Of a DNA stretch of 40,116 nucleotides, positions 29,807-35,588 are shown in pieces. The stretch comes from a phage. The translations under genes were made by a program, and so were the position numbers. The notes beneath the pieces are model-generated. The model was given only the letters and a program-made list of their open reading frames with translations, ran no database searches and was not told where the DNA came from. Position 1 is the stretch's first letter. Each line of letters opens with the position of its first letter. The stretch is from assembly GCA_011944185.1 (NCBI GenBank), contig GCA_011944185.1_3921.1; one strand, 5' to 3'.

Positions 29807-29814
29807 AATTTTAA

Positions 29815-29840
29815 GGCTCCCGTAAAAAGGAGCCTTTTTT
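29815..29840. terminator. bidirectional stem-loop terminator between convergent modules
   Basis: ggctcc-cgtaaaaa-ggagcc followed by TTTTTT on + and preceded by an A/T-rich run; located between the + gene ending 29806 and the - gene ending 29845. Confidence 0.55.
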
Positions 29841-29844
29841 GTTT

Positions 29845-30744
29845 TTACTTACCTACTGACAGGGGCGCTTCAATCTTCCCTGCATGTTGGTAGTTGTAAA
29901 TACCACCAATAAAATCACTTGCAGTAAGATGCTTCAAGTCACTTAAAGTATTAAGTGGTATGCCAATCTCAAAAGTGGGTGCATGAAACTCTTCATTGTT
30001 CATAAGCTCATAAACCTGTTTCATATGGTTCTGATAAATCTGAGTATCTCCAAAGACACCTATCAAGTACCGTGGAGTGTATCCAGTCATCTTACAAAGA
30101 ACTTCTAAGATGAAACCATAAGACGCAATATTAAACGGAAGTCCTAAAAAGGTGTCTACTGAACGTTGATACCACTGTAAGTCAACTTCACCTTCGTTAG
30201 TGATATAAATCTGAAACAGAACATGACAAGGTGCTAAAGCCATTGAGTTTGCTGCGATATCTGCTGCATTCCAAGCATTAACAAGCATGTAGCGGTCTGT
30301 AATATCACCCTTCATCTTCGTTACTAAGGTCTCTAACTGGTCTACAACACAACCATTATGACCTTCAAAGTTTCTCCACTGAACCCCGTAGATTCTCCCA
30401 CCTGCGTCATCTAACCAGTCTTGTTCAGAAGAATAATTAGAGCTTAACCAGCGTTTAAAATCATCTGACCAGATAGTCCAGCGTTCTCCATCATTTTCAT
30501 CCCAAGTGCGGTAACGGAGTTCACCCAGTTTATTCTCACCATTCAGGAACCATAAAGCTTCCCCAATAACTTGCCGTGTAAACACCTGTTTAGATGTTAA
30601 GAGCGGGAAACCAGTTCGCATATCAAAACGAAACTGAGGTGGAGCAAAAGCAGAGATAACATCTCCAGTTCGTGTAGTACGTAGTTCACCAACGGATAAA
30701 ACATGATTCAGGATATTTTTGTAACTTGTATCTGCTTGTGACAT
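29845..30744 (-). CDS. thyA: thymidylate synthase (ThyA family)
   Basis: catalytic-Cys motif ALAPCHVLFQ and DTFLGLPFNIASYGF; adjacent to DHFR. Confidence 0.8.
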   Translation of the reverse strand: MSQADTSYKNILNHVLSVGELRTTRTGDVISAFAPPQFRFDMRTGFPLLTSKQVFTRQVIGEALWFLNGENKLGELRYRTWDENDGERWTIWSDDFKRWLSSNYSSEQDWLDDAGGRIYGVQWRNFEGHNGCVVDQLETLVTKMKGDITDRYMLVNAWNAADIAANSMALAPCHVLFQIYITNEGEVDLQWYQRSVDTFLGLPFNIASYGFILEVLCKMTGYTPRYLIGVFGDTQIYQNHMKQVYELMNNEEFHAPTFEIGIPLNTLSDLKHLTASDFIGGIYNYQHAGKIEAPLSVGK

Positions 30745-30745
30745 A

Positions 30746-31291
30746 TCAAAAGTGTCCTTTTACTTGTGGAACATAAATTTCAAAAGTTGCTTTACCATCA
30801 TCTGATGGTTTTGACTGTACCTTTGTAAACACACGGTTATCATACAGCTTCTCAAAGAAGTTTTCAAAAGGTAAATGCACAGTGGCCTCTTCAGTAACTT
30901 TATGGAAAACAGTATGGAACACCACACTAGCATACGGTAAAGCATTGACAAGGATACCTGCACCACCAATTACAAAGACATCTTCATCAATAGAGCTATC
31001 AAGATACTTCAAAAATGCTCCAAATGACTCTTTACTGGCTTTAGCATACATTACATCATCTTTGCCAAAGTCTATGCCTAAGTAGGGTACAGAATTTGTT
31101 AAGATGAGGTTTGCACGTTCTGGTAAAGGTTTACTACCCAGAGTCTTGAAAGTCTCGTTACCCATCACTACTAAGTTGTTTTTAGTGAGTCTCTTAAACT
31201 CTTGCATGTCTTGTTTATGTCGAGGCCACGGCATACCAGTTGGAGTACCAAACTCACCATTTTCACCACTTGCAAAGATTAATTTAATCAT
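30746..31291 (-). CDS. folA: dihydrofolate reductase
   Basis: N-terminal MIKLIFASGENGEFGTPTGMPWP and VVMGNETFKTLG pattern typical of DHFR; 181 aa. Confidence 0.8.
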   Translation of the reverse strand: MIKLIFASGENGEFGTPTGMPWPRHKQDMQEFKRLTKNNLVVMGNETFKTLGSKPLPERANLILTNSVPYLGIDFGKDDVMYAKASKESFGAFLKYLDSSIDEDVFVIGGAGILVNALPYASVVFHTVFHKVTEEATVHLPFENFFEKLYDNRVFTKVQSKPSDDGKATFEIYVPQVKGHF

Positions 31292-31548
31292 TTTGTAAAT
31301 CCTTTCTTAATGAACCAGTTGATAACATTCTTCACCGCTTTATTGCTGTGGTAGATTAAGTGTGGTGTAGGTTGGTATGAACCATAAGCCCAGAAAGCGA
31401 TAATTTCATTACACCCTGTGCATCGGGTACTTTCTTCAGCAATATGACCGTTGACTATTTCACTTACCTCACCTTGCAAGTCTGTACACCCACAATGTGG
31501 GCATCGGATAGGCGTTCCATCAGACTCATAGCAGTGTTCAATTTTCAT
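31288..31548 (-). CDS. Zn-ribbon small protein (86 aa)
   Basis: CPHCGC ... CTGC cysteine pairs. Confidence 0.45.
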   Translation of the reverse strand: MKIEHCYESDGTPIRCPHCGCTDLQGEVSEIVNGHIAEESTRCTGCNEIIAFWAYGSYQPTPHLIYHSNKAVKNVINWFIKKGFTK

Positions 31549-32064
31549 CTATTTAACCTCAAAAACTGGTTCAAGAACCAATATAAAGTCTACACAGTCG
31601 TCTTCTTCATCCAGAATACCATCAAAGTTCTTAGGAACGAAGTCGAAGAGGCTCATCACAAAGCAGTCAGAAGTAACCCTGATAGTTCCTCCGATGTTCT
31701 CTACAGTTAACACTGTACGACTTTCTTTTACCTCTCGCAGAAGATTACTCACAAAGTCATCTAAGAAGTACTTCATCAGTGACTTGAAACCTTTAGGGTA
31801 ATCTGTACCAGAGTATGTTTCAATCTGAGGCACAAGCTTAACATTTATAATAGTCTTTGTTAAGAACGAGCTAGAGAACATACTATCAGGTAACTTACAA
31901 ACAATCTTACCAGTACCTTCATGTTCAATCTCAACAAAACCAGCTTCATCGCCACATGTAACTATTTTAAAAGATGCTTCATTCTCATACTGTGAAGCCA
32001 TAAACTTTTTAAGCATTTCTTTAAGGAAGTCTGCATGAGTATCTTGTAAGTAGATATCAATCAT
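31549..32064 (-). CDS. hypothetical protein (171 aa)
   Basis: ORF in a co-directional coupled array. Confidence 0.45.
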   Translation of the reverse strand: MIDIYLQDTHADFLKEMLKKFMASQYENEASFKIVTCGDEAGFVEIEHEGTGKIVCKLPDSMFSSSFLTKTIINVKLVPQIETYSGTDYPKGFKSLMKYFLDDFVSNLLREVKESRTVLTVENIGGTIRVTSDCFVMSLFDFVPKNFDGILDEEDDCVDFILVLEPVFEVK

Positions 32065-32077
32065 AGTTAATCACCTA

Positions 32078-32437
32078 TTATGGGAACAGACACTTGATGT
32101 CATCATTTTTGAAAACGAAACTTGTGTAGTTGTGTCCATCAACATCTAGCCAAACAGCCTGAACATCTACACCATCAAGATTCTGGTAAAGCTCTTTGAT
32201 GAAGTGGTCTTTCACAATCTGGCTGCTAGTTGTCTCCAGCTTAATGTTCGAGATTGCTGAACCTACAGCCATATAGCCCATGACACGTTTCTTCTCAGTA
32301 TGCTTAATCTTACCATCTTTGTAAGCCATAATGAGATTGGAGAGAATCTTCACACCATAATACTTTTCAAGGTGAGTCGGTACACCATAAAAGCCTAATG
32401 CGAAGTTTTCAGAGTGGATAATGTTTTCACGTTTCAT
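32078..32437 (-). CDS. hypothetical protein (119 aa)
   Basis: ORF in a co-directional coupled array. Confidence 0.45.
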   Translation of the reverse strand: MKRENIIHSENFALGFYGVPTHLEKYYGVKILSNLIMAYKDGKIKHTEKKRVMGYMAVGSAISNIKLETTSSQIVKDHFIKELYQNLDGVDVQAVWLDVDGHNYTSFVFKNDDIKCLFP

Positions 32438-32438
32438 A

Positions 32439-32768
32439 TTAATCTGCCAGCCTTAAATTAAAATTAACACCAAATTTTTCGCATACTTCCAACATATACT
32501 CAAGGGAGACATTACCAGTGAGGTGGATTATGTTGGATACGCGAGCCTGAGAGATACCACAAATTTTAGCAACTTGCTCTTGAGAAAGACCTCTGGATTT
32601 AATCTCTCTCTTAAAACGATGTGCAACGAAGTCTCTCATTTCGTCTACATCCATTGGACAAATATAACTCTCCATTTCAGCCTCTCTGTCAGCCTCCCAA
32701 TCATCTTGTGGAGCATAAGGGTCAAAAGTCTCATTCATCTTTCTTCTTCCGTTTGCGTGAAGTGTCAA
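32439..32768 (-). CDS. HTH (XRE-like) DNA-binding protein
   Basis: C-terminal helix-turn-helix LSQEQVAKICGISQARVSNIIH; true start may be the internal Met at 32738. Confidence 0.55.
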   Translation of the reverse strand: MTLHANGRRKMNETFDPYAPQDDWEADREAEMESYICPMDVDEMRDFVAHRFKREIKSRGLSQEQVAKICGISQARVSNIIHLTGNVSLEYMLEVCEKFGVNFNLRLAD

Positions 32769-32943
32769 TCAATGAATCTATGTTTGTTGCCCTAACCTTT
32801 TCACGTTCATCGTTAAGATAATCGTCAAGAACCTTTTCAATCTGTGAATCATCTTGACAGATAACTGTAAAGACTGTAAAGCCATCTGTATCGTCAATTA
32901 TCTTACCATAACCGCTTCTGGGATGTAACTTTTTAAGAGCCAT
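32731..32943 (-). CDS. hypothetical small protein (70 aa)
   Basis: ORF overlapping the start of the HTH gene. Confidence 0.35.
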   Translation of the reverse strand: MALKKLHPRSGYGKIIDDTDGFTVFTVICQDDSQIEKVLDDYLNDEREKVRATNIDSLIDTSRKRKKKDE

Positions 32944-32944
32944 A

Positions 32945-33328
32945 TCAAATACCTATGCAGCTTCTGTTTTCTAAGAAATACTCAACACCATACATAGCTT
33001 TTTGCATCAAATCTTCTTTAAACTGGATGCGATGATTGAGCATAGCCTGTACATCAATATCATCATGGTGCTTCTCTTTAATATTTGCAGATTGCAGGAA
33101 ATACTCTGCAAGAACGCGATATTGATAGTCAGTCACCTTATCAGTCATCTCTGTTAAAGACTCTTCAGAGATTGGTTTAAGTAGCTCGCCATTAGCTAGA
33201 GCAACACCTTTAACAATCTGACAAGTGTCTTCTGGAACACCTGATAAGTCCACATTTGGGAGTTCTGTTGCATTGACTGGTAAATTCATTGCCATAACCA
33301 TTGCAGCAGCTAATAAAATCTTTTTCAT
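32945..33328 (-). CDS. secreted/periplasmic protein with signal peptide (127 aa)
   Basis: N-terminal MKKILLAAAMVMAMNLPVNA signal-peptide-like segment; first gene after the regulatory region. Confidence 0.5.
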   Translation of the reverse strand: MKKILLAAAMVMAMNLPVNATELPNVDLSGVPEDTCQIVKGVALANGELLKPISEESLTEMTDKVTDYQYRVLAEYFLQSANIKEKHHDDIDVQAMLNHRIQFKEDLMQKAMYGVEYFLENRSCIGI

Positions 33329-33371
33329 AATGACCTCAAAGTTATATTAAATTTTGTATTACATTGAGTAT

Positions 33372-33417
33372 AAAAATAAGCTATAACACCTGACTTGTCA
33401 ACAGATTTTATAGCTTA
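33372..33417 (-). promoter_or_regulatory. promoter (-35 TTGACA, -10 TATTTT) overlapped by a 10-bp inverted-repeat operator-like site
   Basis: - strand TTGACA (+ coords 33396-33401), 17-nt spacer, TATTTT (33373-33378); arms taagctataa 33377-33386 and ttatagctta 33408-33417 flank the -35. Confidence 0.45.
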
Positions 33418-33760
33418 TCTGGCAGATTTTTTATAAGGCTACTGCCATCCTTCCATACCAGACCACACCATGCAAAACCAGACTTCACATCGCCTTGCCG
33501 TGCAATACATTACTTAAAAACCCTCTTAAAAGACTCTTAAGTGATTCTGGTGAGTACCTGTTGGTTTATGCTGCTCAGTATACTCACCAAATTTTCTATG
33601 TCAACAACTTTTATATAAAAGTCCTGATAGCTATATGTGTTACAAAACAGAAGATTGTGAACAAGACACCCATTGCAAAGGATGTGTTCAAAAGTTTACT
33701 TGTTATGTAAGACAATACAAAGACAACTAATGCAAACAGAATGATTATGCTTAACATAGC

Positions 33761-34864
33761 TTACTCATAATCCCTAATAACTAGCCCAACAGGAAACTGT
33801 AAAGAACCCTTACGAGTCATCTTCTGGAACTGTACCGTCAAAGGTTTCCCGATAAACTCTTCAGGATGCTCAGCAAGATACTGTTTCTTCTCATGAGTAG
33901 TCTTCCATGAGACATCTACAAAGATGTTAGGAAGAGTCTCTACAACGAACTTGCCATGACCACGCTTATCAGTCTTTACACCAGTCACTTTAAACTCTTC
34001 AGTGTGCATCTTCTTGTGCTTAATCAAGAAGTATGAACGGTGACAACACTCATAGAAGGAGTCTTCAGAGATTGAACGGTACATTGCACCTTCAAACTTA
34101 GCTTCAACCCACTTATCATGAGCTTCATCAAACTCTTCCCAAGAATTTACACGACGAGACTTAACAGGGACAACTTTACAGCCATCTCTAAAGTCATTCA
34201 ATGGTGAAGTCTCAATAATATCTCTACGCTCAGGCCACGTCTTAGTACTGTCACAGATATCATACCAGTAAAACTTAAGTAGATGACGGTCAGGATTGTC
34301 TTCATTTTTAATCATAGAGACAATATCTTCTAAGTCCCACCCATGAGCATAAATCTCACCATCAAATTCATCAACATCTTTGTGGAGCCTTAACATTGCC
34401 ATAATGTCAGGTATTAGCTCAGTAGGTATTTTATAAACAGTATTCTCACGAGAGTATGCTGTAAATACACTACCAATGCTTAAGTGTCTTGAAATTCTAC
34501 AACGGACACCATCAAGTTTTGGTTGAGCATCAGCAGGAAATATCAAATACTTTGCATGACTAACCTTTGCAGCATCATGAGCAAGCTGTACACCTACCTT
34601 CTCAGTATTCTGTGCAGACTCTTTCGTGTAAGCATAACCTTTACGGTCAACTTGCTTTTTATACTTAGCAGCAACTTCAAAGAGGGCTTGCTGTTCAGCA
34701 TTACGCTCATTCTTTTTACCGATGTTTTTAGGTTCTGCTGTATACTCTTCAAACATCATCTTGCCATTTTCTTTACCGTAGGTTGTAATAACTTTGTCAC
34801 CTACAGCAACGCATGACCAAACGTTGAAAGAGCCGTCTTTATTTTGTTTGTATAGAATTGTCAT
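33761..34864 (-). CDS. ATP-dependent DNA ligase
   Basis: adenylation motif I KLDG (QPKLDGVRC); 367 aa. Confidence 0.8.
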   Translation of the reverse strand: MTILYKQNKDGSFNVWSCVAVGDKVITTYGKENGKMMFEEYTAEPKNIGKKNERNAEQQALFEVAAKYKKQVDRKGYAYTKESAQNTEKVGVQLAHDAAKVSHAKYLIFPADAQPKLDGVRCRISRHLSIGSVFTAYSRENTVYKIPTELIPDIMAMLRLHKDVDEFDGEIYAHGWDLEDIVSMIKNEDNPDRHLLKFYWYDICDSTKTWPERRDIIETSPLNDFRDGCKVVPVKSRRVNSWEEFDEAHDKWVEAKFEGAMYRSISEDSFYECCHRSYFLIKHKKMHTEEFKVTGVKTDKRGHGKFVVETLPNIFVDVSWKTTHEKKQYLAEHPEEFIGKPLTVQFQKMTRKGSLQFPVGLVIRDYE

Positions 34865-34869
34865 TCAAA

Positions 34870-35394
34870 TTACCTTAGCATGTGTGATTTTACTGGAATA
34901 AAGATACCAAATTGTGAGACTGCTAAACCAGATAGTGATATACACTGTTCAGGTAAGTACACAAAAGCCCCTGTGTAGAAGTCTATAAAAGAACCATCAT
35001 CTTGTTTGCAGGCTAGTTTTCCATAACCATAGTTGTACAACTTTAATGAACCATCATCATACTTTGAGTAGTTCTTGAACTGAACATTAAAAGCATATTC
35101 AGAGAATCTTGTGTACAGGTCATAAAGCAATCCAATACTGTCGTCGACTATTGCTACACCAAACTTTTTACAAATATCCACATAGTTTTTGTATAATTTA
35201 TTATGATTTTCAGGTGTTGCAAAGTTTGTATACCAATGTTCTAAGATAGATAACTTAATTGGCTGATTTTTAGAATATTCTAATACCTTCATGTCATACC
35301 AAGATTTCCTAAGTCTGACATCATCTAGCCTTAAATTTTGAGACACTTCACGGAAGTTTTTGATGATTATATTTCTGCGCCTATTGTCAATCAT
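34870..35394 (-). CDS. hypothetical protein
   Basis: ORF 34870..35418 in the track; start placed at the internal ATG at 35394, which follows the upstream stop. Confidence 0.4.
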   Translation of the reverse strand: MIDNRRRNIIIKNFREVSQNLRLDDVRLRKSWYDMKVLEYSKNQPIKLSILEHWYTNFATPENHNKLYKNYVDICKKFGVAIVDDSIGLLYDLYTRFSEYAFNVQFKNYSKYDDGSLKLYNYGYGKLACKQDDGSFIDFYTGAFVYLPEQCISLSGLAVSQFGIFIPVKSHMLR

Positions 35395-35396
35395 AA

Positions 35397-35588
35397 TCAG
35401 CCCTCTGAGTGATACCAAGTATTACAAGCATTACATGCGTAAAGCTCTAAGTCATTTTTATCTGGTTTATGAAAACAGTTTGCTCCGCAGTGGCAACGAA
35501 ACGGCTTTCCACCAACTGTCAGGATGAAGGATTGAACCTTTCCATCTGGAGTTCGTACAGCATTTTTATGCTTATCTTCTTTGTTCAT
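35397..35588 (-). CDS. Zn-ribbon small protein (63 aa)
   Basis: CHCGANC ... CNAC cysteine pairs. Confidence 0.45.
   Translation of the reverse strand: MNKEDKHKNAVRTPDGKVQSFILTVGGKPFRCHCGANCFHKPDKNDLELYACNACNTWYHSEG

Follow-up and report, generated by a model that had tools for sequence, protein, structure and literature searches.

This report concerns six small genes of a phage genome, designated A to F, which occupy positions 31288-33328 on the minus strand of a 40,116-nucleotide (nt) stretch of DNA (contig GCA_011944185.1_3921.1 of GenBank assembly GCA_011944185.1). The window, by which we mean this whole stretch, is ~40 kb out of an ~86-kb genome. The block is flanked by the gene of an ATP-dependent DNA ligase (33761-34864) and by the frd/folA-td/thyA pair. 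The source phage is a Felixounavirus: in a megablast search, positions 31000-34000 matched 257 phage records, 213 of them covering at least 80% of the query, and the 216 closest records, almost all Felixounavirus, were 90 to 97% identical. The members of this genus are Felix O1-like myoviruses that infect Escherichia, Salmonella, Shigella, and Citrobacter. A preliminary description of the sequence had counted five to six tightly packed minus-strand open reading frames (ORFs) here; the packing and the coordinates stand, and the count is exactly six. The block and the features that delimit it are listed below, with lengths in amino acids (aa).

33577-33604, minus strand: promoter P1 (distal, sigma70-like), TTGACA-16-TATACT, 11/12 matches; upstream of a vrRNA-like element described below
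33373-33401, minus strand: promoter P2 (proximal, sigma70-like), TTGACA-17-TATTTT; 45 nt upstream of the start of F
33375-33418, minus strand: 11-bp inverted repeat, ATAAGCTATAA/TTATAGCTTAT, with a T-run after it; terminator-like hairpin whose loop contains the P2 -35 box
32945-33328, minus strand: gene F, 127 aa; Felix O1 ORF87 = Bas63 g37; phrog_4332 (unknown function)
32731-32943, minus strand: gene E, 70 aa; ORF86 = g36; phrog_4473 (unknown function)
32439-32738, minus strand: gene D, 99 aa; ORF85 = g35; phrog_1373; helix-turn-helix (HTH) protein of XRE/Cro-C1 type
32078-32437, minus strand: gene C, 119 aa; ORF84 = g34; orphan
31549-32064, minus strand: gene B, 171 aa; ORF83 = g33; phrog_4422; acidic orphan
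31288-31548, minus strand: gene A, 86 aa; ORF82 = g32; phrog_2993; zinc ribbon
30746-31291, minus strand: folA/frd, distal gene of the same packed unit
29845-30744, minus strand: thyA/td, distal gene of the same packed unit
29813-29836, both strands: bidirectional intrinsic terminator after td, closing the unit; equivalent to t79/t80 of Felix O1 (Felix O1 Table 2)

Genes A to F match one to one with Ro111lw 00078-00083, JLBYU28 76-81, Bas63 bas63_0032-0037, and Felix O1 ORF82-87, and they are annotated coding sequences in all of these. From F to td, successive genes are spaced by -8 to +13 nt: the end of E overlaps the start of D by 8 nt, the stop codon of B abuts the start of A, and the stop codon of A overlaps the start of frd/folA (ATGA). 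P1 and P2 are the only strong sigma70-like sites on the minus strand, and both lie in the gap between the ligase gene and F. This ligase-F gap varies more than 20-fold in length among Ounavirinae loci, from 84 to 2135 nt, yet all the Ounavirinae loci examined have a TTGACA box ahead of F. In Felix O1, the reverse transcription-PCR (RT-PCR) products of ORF83, ORF84, and ORF87 were maximal at 25 min ("middle"), those of ORF80, ORF88, and ORF96 also peaked at 25 min, and that of ORF81 peaked at 10 min (PMC3185647, Table 3).

We read the eight genes F-E-D-C-B-A-frd-td as one putative transcription unit of the delayed-early or middle class. Host RNA polymerase would transcribe it from the sigma70-like promoters in the ligase-F gap, and it would be translated as a tightly coupled whole, ending at the bidirectional terminator after td. 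The preliminary description had likened the layout to that of early genes; small genes behind sigma70-like promoters agree with this, but a maximum at 25 min for ORF83, ORF84, and ORF87 is not that of immediate early genes.

Constraint on the block and features of its products

Each of the six genes was found in ~259 to 365 phage records, and they are syntenic in essentially all records of Felixounavirus, Suspvirus, and Mooglevirus. In Suspvirus and Mooglevirus their order is unchanged at 32 to 76% protein identity. Gene F is 95 to 99% identical in 176 records and gene C at least 99% identical in 138, and C is the sole member of the six also present in Kolesnikvirus (36% identity). The ratio of nonsynonymous to synonymous divergence (pN/pS) was calculated from ~25 to 30 Felixounavirus loci, with 13 to 27 distinct nucleotide alleles per gene and a synonymous divergence pS of 0.12 to 0.26. 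It was 0.125 for A, 0.162 for B, 0.036 for C, 0.067 for D, 0.047 for E, and 0.074 for F, in the same range as the neighboring td/thyA (0.039), frd/folA (0.100), and ligase (0.033) genes. All six ORFs are real genes under strong purifying selection, and their reality does not depend on annotation. That some or all of them are chance frames or decaying pseudogenes is suggested by the small size of E and A and by nothing else; it is refuted by pN/pS values of 0.04 to 0.16 at this level of synonymous divergence, as well as by the synteny across three genera and by the RT-PCR products for ORF83, ORF84, and ORF87 (PMC3185647), and we consider it virtually impossible. The label "accessory" in the preliminary description does not survive either, given an order that is fixed in three Ounavirinae genera and the selection on all six genes.

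Divergence between genera is uneven. B and F have the lowest identities (32 to 40%, compared to 60 to 82% for td, frd, A, C, and D), and in the Felixounavirus IME338 gene B is swapped for a 32%-identical allele. To judge from the sequences, the fast divergence of B and F fits variable interaction partners, yet both are conserved within Felixounavirus. Suspvirus, Mooglevirus, and IME338 also have an extra gene of 166 to 167 aa between the orthologs of C and B, without a Pfam match, which the source phage lacks (3475-3975 in locus L004, 3466-3969 in L005, 1987-2490 in L008); it marks a second indel point, inside the block. This gene (B1) was considered as a paralog of B and ruled out, with an hhalign probability of 0.3%.

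The preliminary description had recognized an XRE-type HTH protein, a zinc-ribbon protein, and a signal-peptide protein among the ORFs, and all three are confirmed. The HTH protein is D, in which residues 43-93 match positions 2-52 of the 55 in Pfam HTH_3 (PF01381) with 39.7 bits against a cutoff of 23. HTH_37 is matched with 28.2 bits (cutoff, 27) and phrog_1373, "transcriptional regulator," with an E value of 1.7e-25, and the best natural match in the PDB is the HTH of PezA (E value, 0.007). A PDB match to a designed "CAP repeat" protein was rejected as an artifact, its score being a sum over repeats. The length of 99 aa is counted from a conserved ATG, the TTG at 32768 being a mechanical extension, and includes a conserved acidic N-terminal extension of ~35 aa. 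D might bind DNA as a dimer and modulate phage or host promoters.

The zinc ribbon of A has two invariant CxxC pairs, C16/C19 and C43/C46 (CPHCG...CxGC; alignments A8 and A9), the second reading CTGC in the copy of the source phage. It is followed by a family motif, FWAYGSYxP, and then by a conserved C-terminal helix. Homologs of A outside the Ounavirinae occur in Krischvirus, Tegunavirus, Nonagvirus, and others (Straboviridae and Queuovirinae), always among small early-type ORFs. A PDB profile search with A gave generic zinc fingers only. The 90%-identity cluster that holds B also lists 86-aa A sequences, and the stop codon of B is in frame with the start of A. A conserved B-A read-through fusion is ruled out, however, since TAA or TAG invariably stands at the junction (14 loci each, 28 relatives).

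Gene F begins with a signal peptide, MKKILLAAAMVMAMNLPVNA, with predicted cleavage before TE, and its mature part is predicted to be helical. The signal peptide was judged from its n-, h-, and c-regions, its hydropathy, and small residues at -3 and -1: all six orthologs compared have MKK, a hydrophobic core of 13 to 15 residues (mean Kyte-Doolittle value, 1.9 to 2.3), and then VNA, ASA, AVA, or AYA, a small-x-small motif. Two invariant cysteines, C36 and C124, lie near opposite ends of the mature chain. The signal peptide, cleavage motif, and cysteine pair are kept at just 30 to 34% identity to the Suspvirus and Mooglevirus proteins (alignment A5). No lipobox L-[AS]-[GA]-C of the T5 Llp/Cor type is found at the predicted cleavage site of F, the first conserved cysteine being residue 36. 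These features point to a soluble, disulfide-bonded periplasmic protein, which would act on the envelope, either blocking later infection or protecting the wall. A PDB profile search with F gave nothing, and homology with T4 Spackle is ruled out, since the hhalign probability was 13% and the alignment covered signal-peptide columns only (PDB 6x6o, sequence verified against the PDB).

Genes B, C, and E are subfamily-restricted orphans; their PHROG matches are to their own families of unknown function, and Pfam, NCBIfam, and PADLOC gave no match for any of them. B has a pI of 4.5 and diverges fast, and it may be a rapidly evolving interaction protein. E has an invariant C-terminal motif, VRATNIDSLIDTSRKR(K/R)KKDE. 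PDB profile searches with B and C found nothing, and a HMMER profile search with C among 1.84 billion representatives found just five credible clusters, besides four long repetitive proteins regarded as spurious. Word-indexed homology searches with F, with A, and with a concatenated F+E+C+B+A profile returned Ounavirinae clusters only. The constraint on C, similar to that on td, suggests that it binds a conserved phage or host machine.

The gap upstream of gene F

Two further features lie between the ligase gene and F:

33611-33757, minus strand: hydrophobic ORF, 48 aa; Bas63 g38 (bas63_0038); between the ligase gene and P1
33413-33502, minus strand: vrRNA-like orphan guide, ten phased YNNGG units and a 3' tail; between P1 and P2

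The second resembles the guides of VIPR, a system described with SUSP1 as the model phage and composed of a RAMP-like protein, Vipr, an accessory protein, Vap, and vrRNAs with 9 to 16 YNNGG repeats and a structured tail (bioRxiv 10.64898/2026.04.26.720920, June 2026). The vrRNAs read DNA via the NN positions under a 1-nt skip rule and repress competing elements; the word "orphan" is not used in that preprint (bioRxiv 10.64898/2026.04.26.720920). In the source phage, the units of the array (33502-33453) have an intact GG in 7 cases out of 10 and have lost a G in the other 3, and the tail, GGATGGCAGTAGCC...CTGCC (~33452-33413), is a conserved hairpin. The periodicity of the array scores 23/30, compared to a maximum of 20 in 20 shuffles, and the tract is unique in the window. 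A single nucleotide separates its tail from the one nearest to F in SUSP1, Moogle, and LMP25, which have VIPR, and GGCAG/CTGCC and GGTAG/CTACC are compensatory alternatives in the different tail types. The NN sets differ between orthologous arrays (loci L002, L023, and L013). Another hairpin, at 33511-33543, lies near the element. Rfam gave nothing in the gap or in array-rich loci.

Neither vipr (tblastn with SUSP1 Vipr; best E value, 2.1) nor vap (tblastn with Vap1; best E value, 3.5) was found in the 40-kb window, and the absence of vipr holds for the window only, since this is less than half of the genome; positions 20-84 kb of Bas63 also lack vipr. In LMP25, phiSUSP1, and Moogle, duplicate copies of the array module lie on both sides of two additional genes (195 and 146 aa), which are vipr and vap1. 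These are 98 to 99% identical across Suspvirus, Mooglevirus, and Felixounavirus, compared to 30 to 80% for their flanks (690-1720 in locus L004, 668-1698 in L005, and 3200-4227 in L006), which indicates recent transfer: the VIPR cassette moves horizontally within the Ounavirinae, apparently by recombination between the flanking vrRNA/promoter repeats. A vipr gene at 90% identity or more is present in 118 phage records, ~45% of the 259 that carry F, and roughly half of the Ounavirinae, those without vipr, keep an orphan vrRNA upstream. Arrays are confined to the ligase-F gap in the loci scanned, with 0 to 5 copies per locus, and the VIPR-less phages Felix O1, Ro111lw, JLBYU28, IME338, and Bas63 keep 1 to 3 of them, some with different NN sets. 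The ligase-F gap is a VIPR insertion site, and the phage-conflict element of this neighborhood is the VIPR locus, separate from the six genes. The block itself is fixed, and the variation is at its borders, in the presence or absence of the VIPR module and g38 upstream and of the extra gene between C and B.

We considered the six genes as vap-like accessory components of the neighboring VIPR system, because in VIPR-positive phages a vrRNA array ends directly at the F promoter and because the type II vap genes, like D, are predicted to encode DNA binders (bioRxiv 10.64898/2026.04.26.720920). The pattern of presence and absence effectively refutes this: mistaenkt, ESh22, and EP1 carry the full block without vipr, vap, or vrRNA arrays, with gaps of 84 to 157 nt. 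In addition, the six genes diverge with the phage backbone, unlike the nearly identical vipr and vap, and the SUSP1 locus is defined as vipr, vap1, and vrRNAs only (bioRxiv 10.64898/2026.04.26.720920). We give this explanation hardly any credence.

The orphan guide may be a deletion scar or may act in trans. Searches for targets with the exact 20-base gapped pattern of the 1-nt skip rule gave no match in IMG/VR and one in 185,579 genomes, at chance level (a metagenome-assembled genome of Ignavibacteriaceae). In the window no 1-nt-skip target was found with up to 3 mismatches, and the vrRNAs of relatives do not target the window above shuffled-order controls. A VIPR-independent, trans-acting conflict module can be conceived, made up of an orphan vrRNA transcribed from P1, A as a new Lar-like anti-restriction family, and F as a new periplasmic exclusion factor. 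In such a module the orphan vrRNA would be loaded by the Vipr of a co-infecting VIPR-positive relative or satellite (a hijack) or, alternatively, would titrate foreign Vipr as a guide-RNA decoy. We regard it as very doubtful. Earlier explanations of the GGTNN array as a TRAP-like attenuator site, an R-loop origin, a primase landing pad, or a shuffling cassette of the T4 PeSL type are superseded by VIPR.

Similar arrays are not confined to this subfamily. An exact scan of IMG/VR for (GGTNN)6GGT found at least 120 loci. Among the 80 of these that were examined (L050-L129), dozens have complex arrays, and 33 have a 33-nt match and at least 4 distinct NN; these lie on unrelated viral contigs, as (GGTNN)10-20 between ORFs and mostly co-oriented with the flanking genes. 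Many of the arrays examined form tandem super-arrays ~65 to 85 nt apart, with ends of ...GGTAA GGC or GGAAT GGT (for example, L059 3395-3841, L069 2301-3404, and L066 2326-3224). Presumably these belong to other types of VIPR, as their vrRNA arrays.

The ORF of 48 aa between the ligase gene and P1 has a grand average of hydropathy (GRAVY) of 1.9 and two likely membrane spans. Some Felixounaviruses have this gene (g38), whereas Felix O1 and IME338 do not. Its product, a putative small membrane protein encoded next to F, is a further candidate for exclusion or lysis timing.

Elsewhere in the window, 24 tRNA genes (Rfam RF00005) are clustered at 98-5669 on the plus strand, as is typical of Felix O1-like phages. 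An ORF of 182 aa with a TTG start and no Pfam match lies downstream of the ligase gene (34870-35418, minus strand). This position is variable, Bas63 and JLBYU28 having different, shorter genes there, and Bas63 g40, at the same position, is a reported trigger of the hhe defense system.

Roles proposed for the block

On balance, the block is probably a segment of a conserved operon, encoding small proteins of host-interaction and auxiliary type whose expression accompanies that of enzymes of nucleotide metabolism. Its six products, being small, non-enzymatic, and lineage-specific, would serve as host-takeover and auxiliary factors. Pfam, NCBIfam, PHROGs, PADLOC, and the PDB gave no routine enzymatic assignment for any block gene, and the profile searches proposed in the preliminary description assigned a routine replication function to none of the six. 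The block proteins are not mentioned as virion parts in the text on Bas63 cryo-electron microscopy.

Several points weigh against this reading. The promoter scan was not enriched over shuffles (15 compared to 18.8 ± 4.4) and yields consensus matches only; because the scan as a whole is not above shuffles, P1 and P2 are proposed from position and conservation. The timing of expression comes from one end-point RT-PCR study of 2010, in which ORF82, ORF85, and ORF86 are unlisted (PMC3185647). AlphaFold2 gave no usable model for C (pLDDT 44) or for the mature part of F (pLDDT 42). What is shown for the six products is the domain and targeting features of D, A, and F, the constraint, and the transcripts of three orthologs; the activities are inferred.

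The remaining points concern A and its relation to Lar. Gene 32 of Bas63 corresponds to A, because the numbering in the PhageMaP study equals the locus tags for g65, g79, g80, g84, g85, g124, and g130. In that study, this gene is conditionally essential, being needed less in DH10B, a strain without the restriction systems of K-12; the authors call it Lar-like and interpret its host-genotype-dependent fitness as anti-restriction. Polarity on the overlapping frd-td genes could also produce this phenotype. Furthermore, Bas63 was remarkably sensitive to several restriction-modification (RM) systems in the BASEL work, which argues against a broad anti-restriction activity of A. Against the Lar family of NCBIfam (TIGR03655), A scores 18.7 bits, under the cutoff of 39.6, and the C-terminal segment of Lar (profile positions ~40-55) is missing from A, which has a different tail instead.

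The same holds for the family of A at large. Eight more diverse members gave 15 to 23 bits or no match, compared to 55.3 bits for the Lar/RalR positive control, and the alignments are confined to the ribbon core (profile positions 2-39 of 55, ending at 34-39). Because of these scores and this restriction to the core, A is Lar-like in scaffold and not a member of the Lar family. Sub-threshold NCBIfam matches to anti_R_Lar were seen in 6 of 9 diverse members tested and to ECs_2282 in 8 of 9. None of the cluster members examined for A bears the name Lar, all being called "hypothetical" or "phage protein," and a statement of "90% homology to Lar" is unsupported by the database names. A may target a nucleic-acid enzyme of the host, as Lar and similar small zinc-ribbon inhibitors from phages do, and the fitness pattern of Bas63 gene 32, which depends on the restriction genotype, would then be explained.

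The preliminary description had compared the array to anti-defense or superinfection-exclusion cassettes. For A and F such roles are plausible, with the fitness effect of gene 32 in favor; but PADLOC matched only a generic HTH, and F is unrelated to Spackle. In a dedicated cassette of this kind, A would provide anti-restriction, F periplasmic exclusion, B the inhibition of an immune protein, and D the regulation of the cassette. The diminished need for gene 32 in DH10B, the place of Lar among the top NCBIfam matches of A, the fast divergence of B and F between genera, the replacement of the B allele in IME338, and the adjoining VIPR conflict locus are all consistent with it, and sp and imm of T4 are likewise located among replication genes. 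No PADLOC or other anti-defense profile was matched by the block besides the generic HTH, however. The block is also fixed and strongly constrained in Felixounavirus, unlike typical shuffled anti-defense islands, and Bas63 is sensitive to RM systems. The PhageMaP text mentions no hit in g33-g37. We hold a dedicated cassette to be unlikely.

The genes might instead serve the machinery of replication and nucleotide precursors as auxiliary subunits or regulators, for example, as scaffolds of a deoxynucleotide-synthesizing (dNTP) complex or regulators of frd, td, and ligase expression, co-transcribed as functional partners. They share an operon with frd-td directly downstream of the ligase gene, and in Felix O1 they fall into the same expression class as td, ligase, and polymerase (PMC3185647). 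C is as constrained as td and in Kolesnikvirus stands beside ligase or tRNA nucleotidyltransferase genes. Yet five libraries yielded no homology to families of replication or metabolism, and neither did the search of 1.84 billion proteins with C; the exported F has no obvious role in DNA metabolism, and genes of the A family elsewhere sit among unrelated small early ORFs. This explanation seems to us quite improbable, and we prefer the reading given first.

Felix O1-like phages find wide application as agents of typing, biocontrol, and therapy for Salmonella and E. coli, and they carry here six universally conserved genes without an assigned function. The candidates for host takeover, anti-restriction, or exclusion are now narrowed to a predicted DNA-binding regulator, a zinc ribbon with a restriction-linked phenotype, an exported protein, and a constrained orphan. 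Orphan guides in VIPR-less phages bear on the gain and loss of such systems and on their possible exploitation in trans.

Comparison with known systems

The gene set and its order are identical in Felix O1 (ORF82-87), Bas63 (JohannRWettstein; g32-g37), wV8, and more than 250 other Ounavirinae records. In Felix O1, Bas63, wV8, and other Felixounavirus phages, the block proteins are 90 to 100% identical and are annotated as hypothetical, with one "transcriptional regulator." Compared to some relatives, the source phage is without the vipr/vap insertion upstream and without the extra gene between C and B, and there is otherwise no substantive difference. The block thus consists of already known conserved hypothetical genes of a well-studied genus, and the six genes make up no new kind of system.

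Among the individual proteins, D has a complete HTH_3 domain in common with XRE/Cro-C1 regulators such as the HTH of the PezA antitoxin and the controller (C) proteins of RM systems, and PADLOC controller proteins and PezA match it weakly. It differs from these in its acidic N-terminal extension, in its phage-specific family, and in having no toxin or RM partner nearby. A and the Lar/RalR protein of the Rac prophage (TIGR03655, NF007260) are both small phage zinc ribbons with CPxCG(C/G) and CxGC knuckles ~20 to 25 residues apart, and Lar is among the top NCBIfam matches of A, though below the family threshold. A is unlike Lar in its own FWAYGSYxP motif and 30-residue C-terminal extension. Spackle (gp61.3) and Imm of T4 are superinfection-exclusion proteins of the periplasm or membrane. 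Spackle and F are of one type: each is small, starts with a Sec signal peptide, has a mature part predicted to be all-helical, and contains a pair of cysteines. Like F, Spackle is encoded by a virulent myovirus in the midst of replication and nucleotide genes; the sequences are unrelated, and the likeness is one of analogy only.

Of what the analysis turned up besides the block itself, the orphan VIPR guide upstream deserves most notice. Whereas the type II VIPR locus of SUSP1 has four arrays together with vipr and vap, the source phage has one array, without vipr and vap in the window; the two are alike in their phased GGY/NN repeats, in the hairpin of the tail, and in their site between the ligase gene and F.

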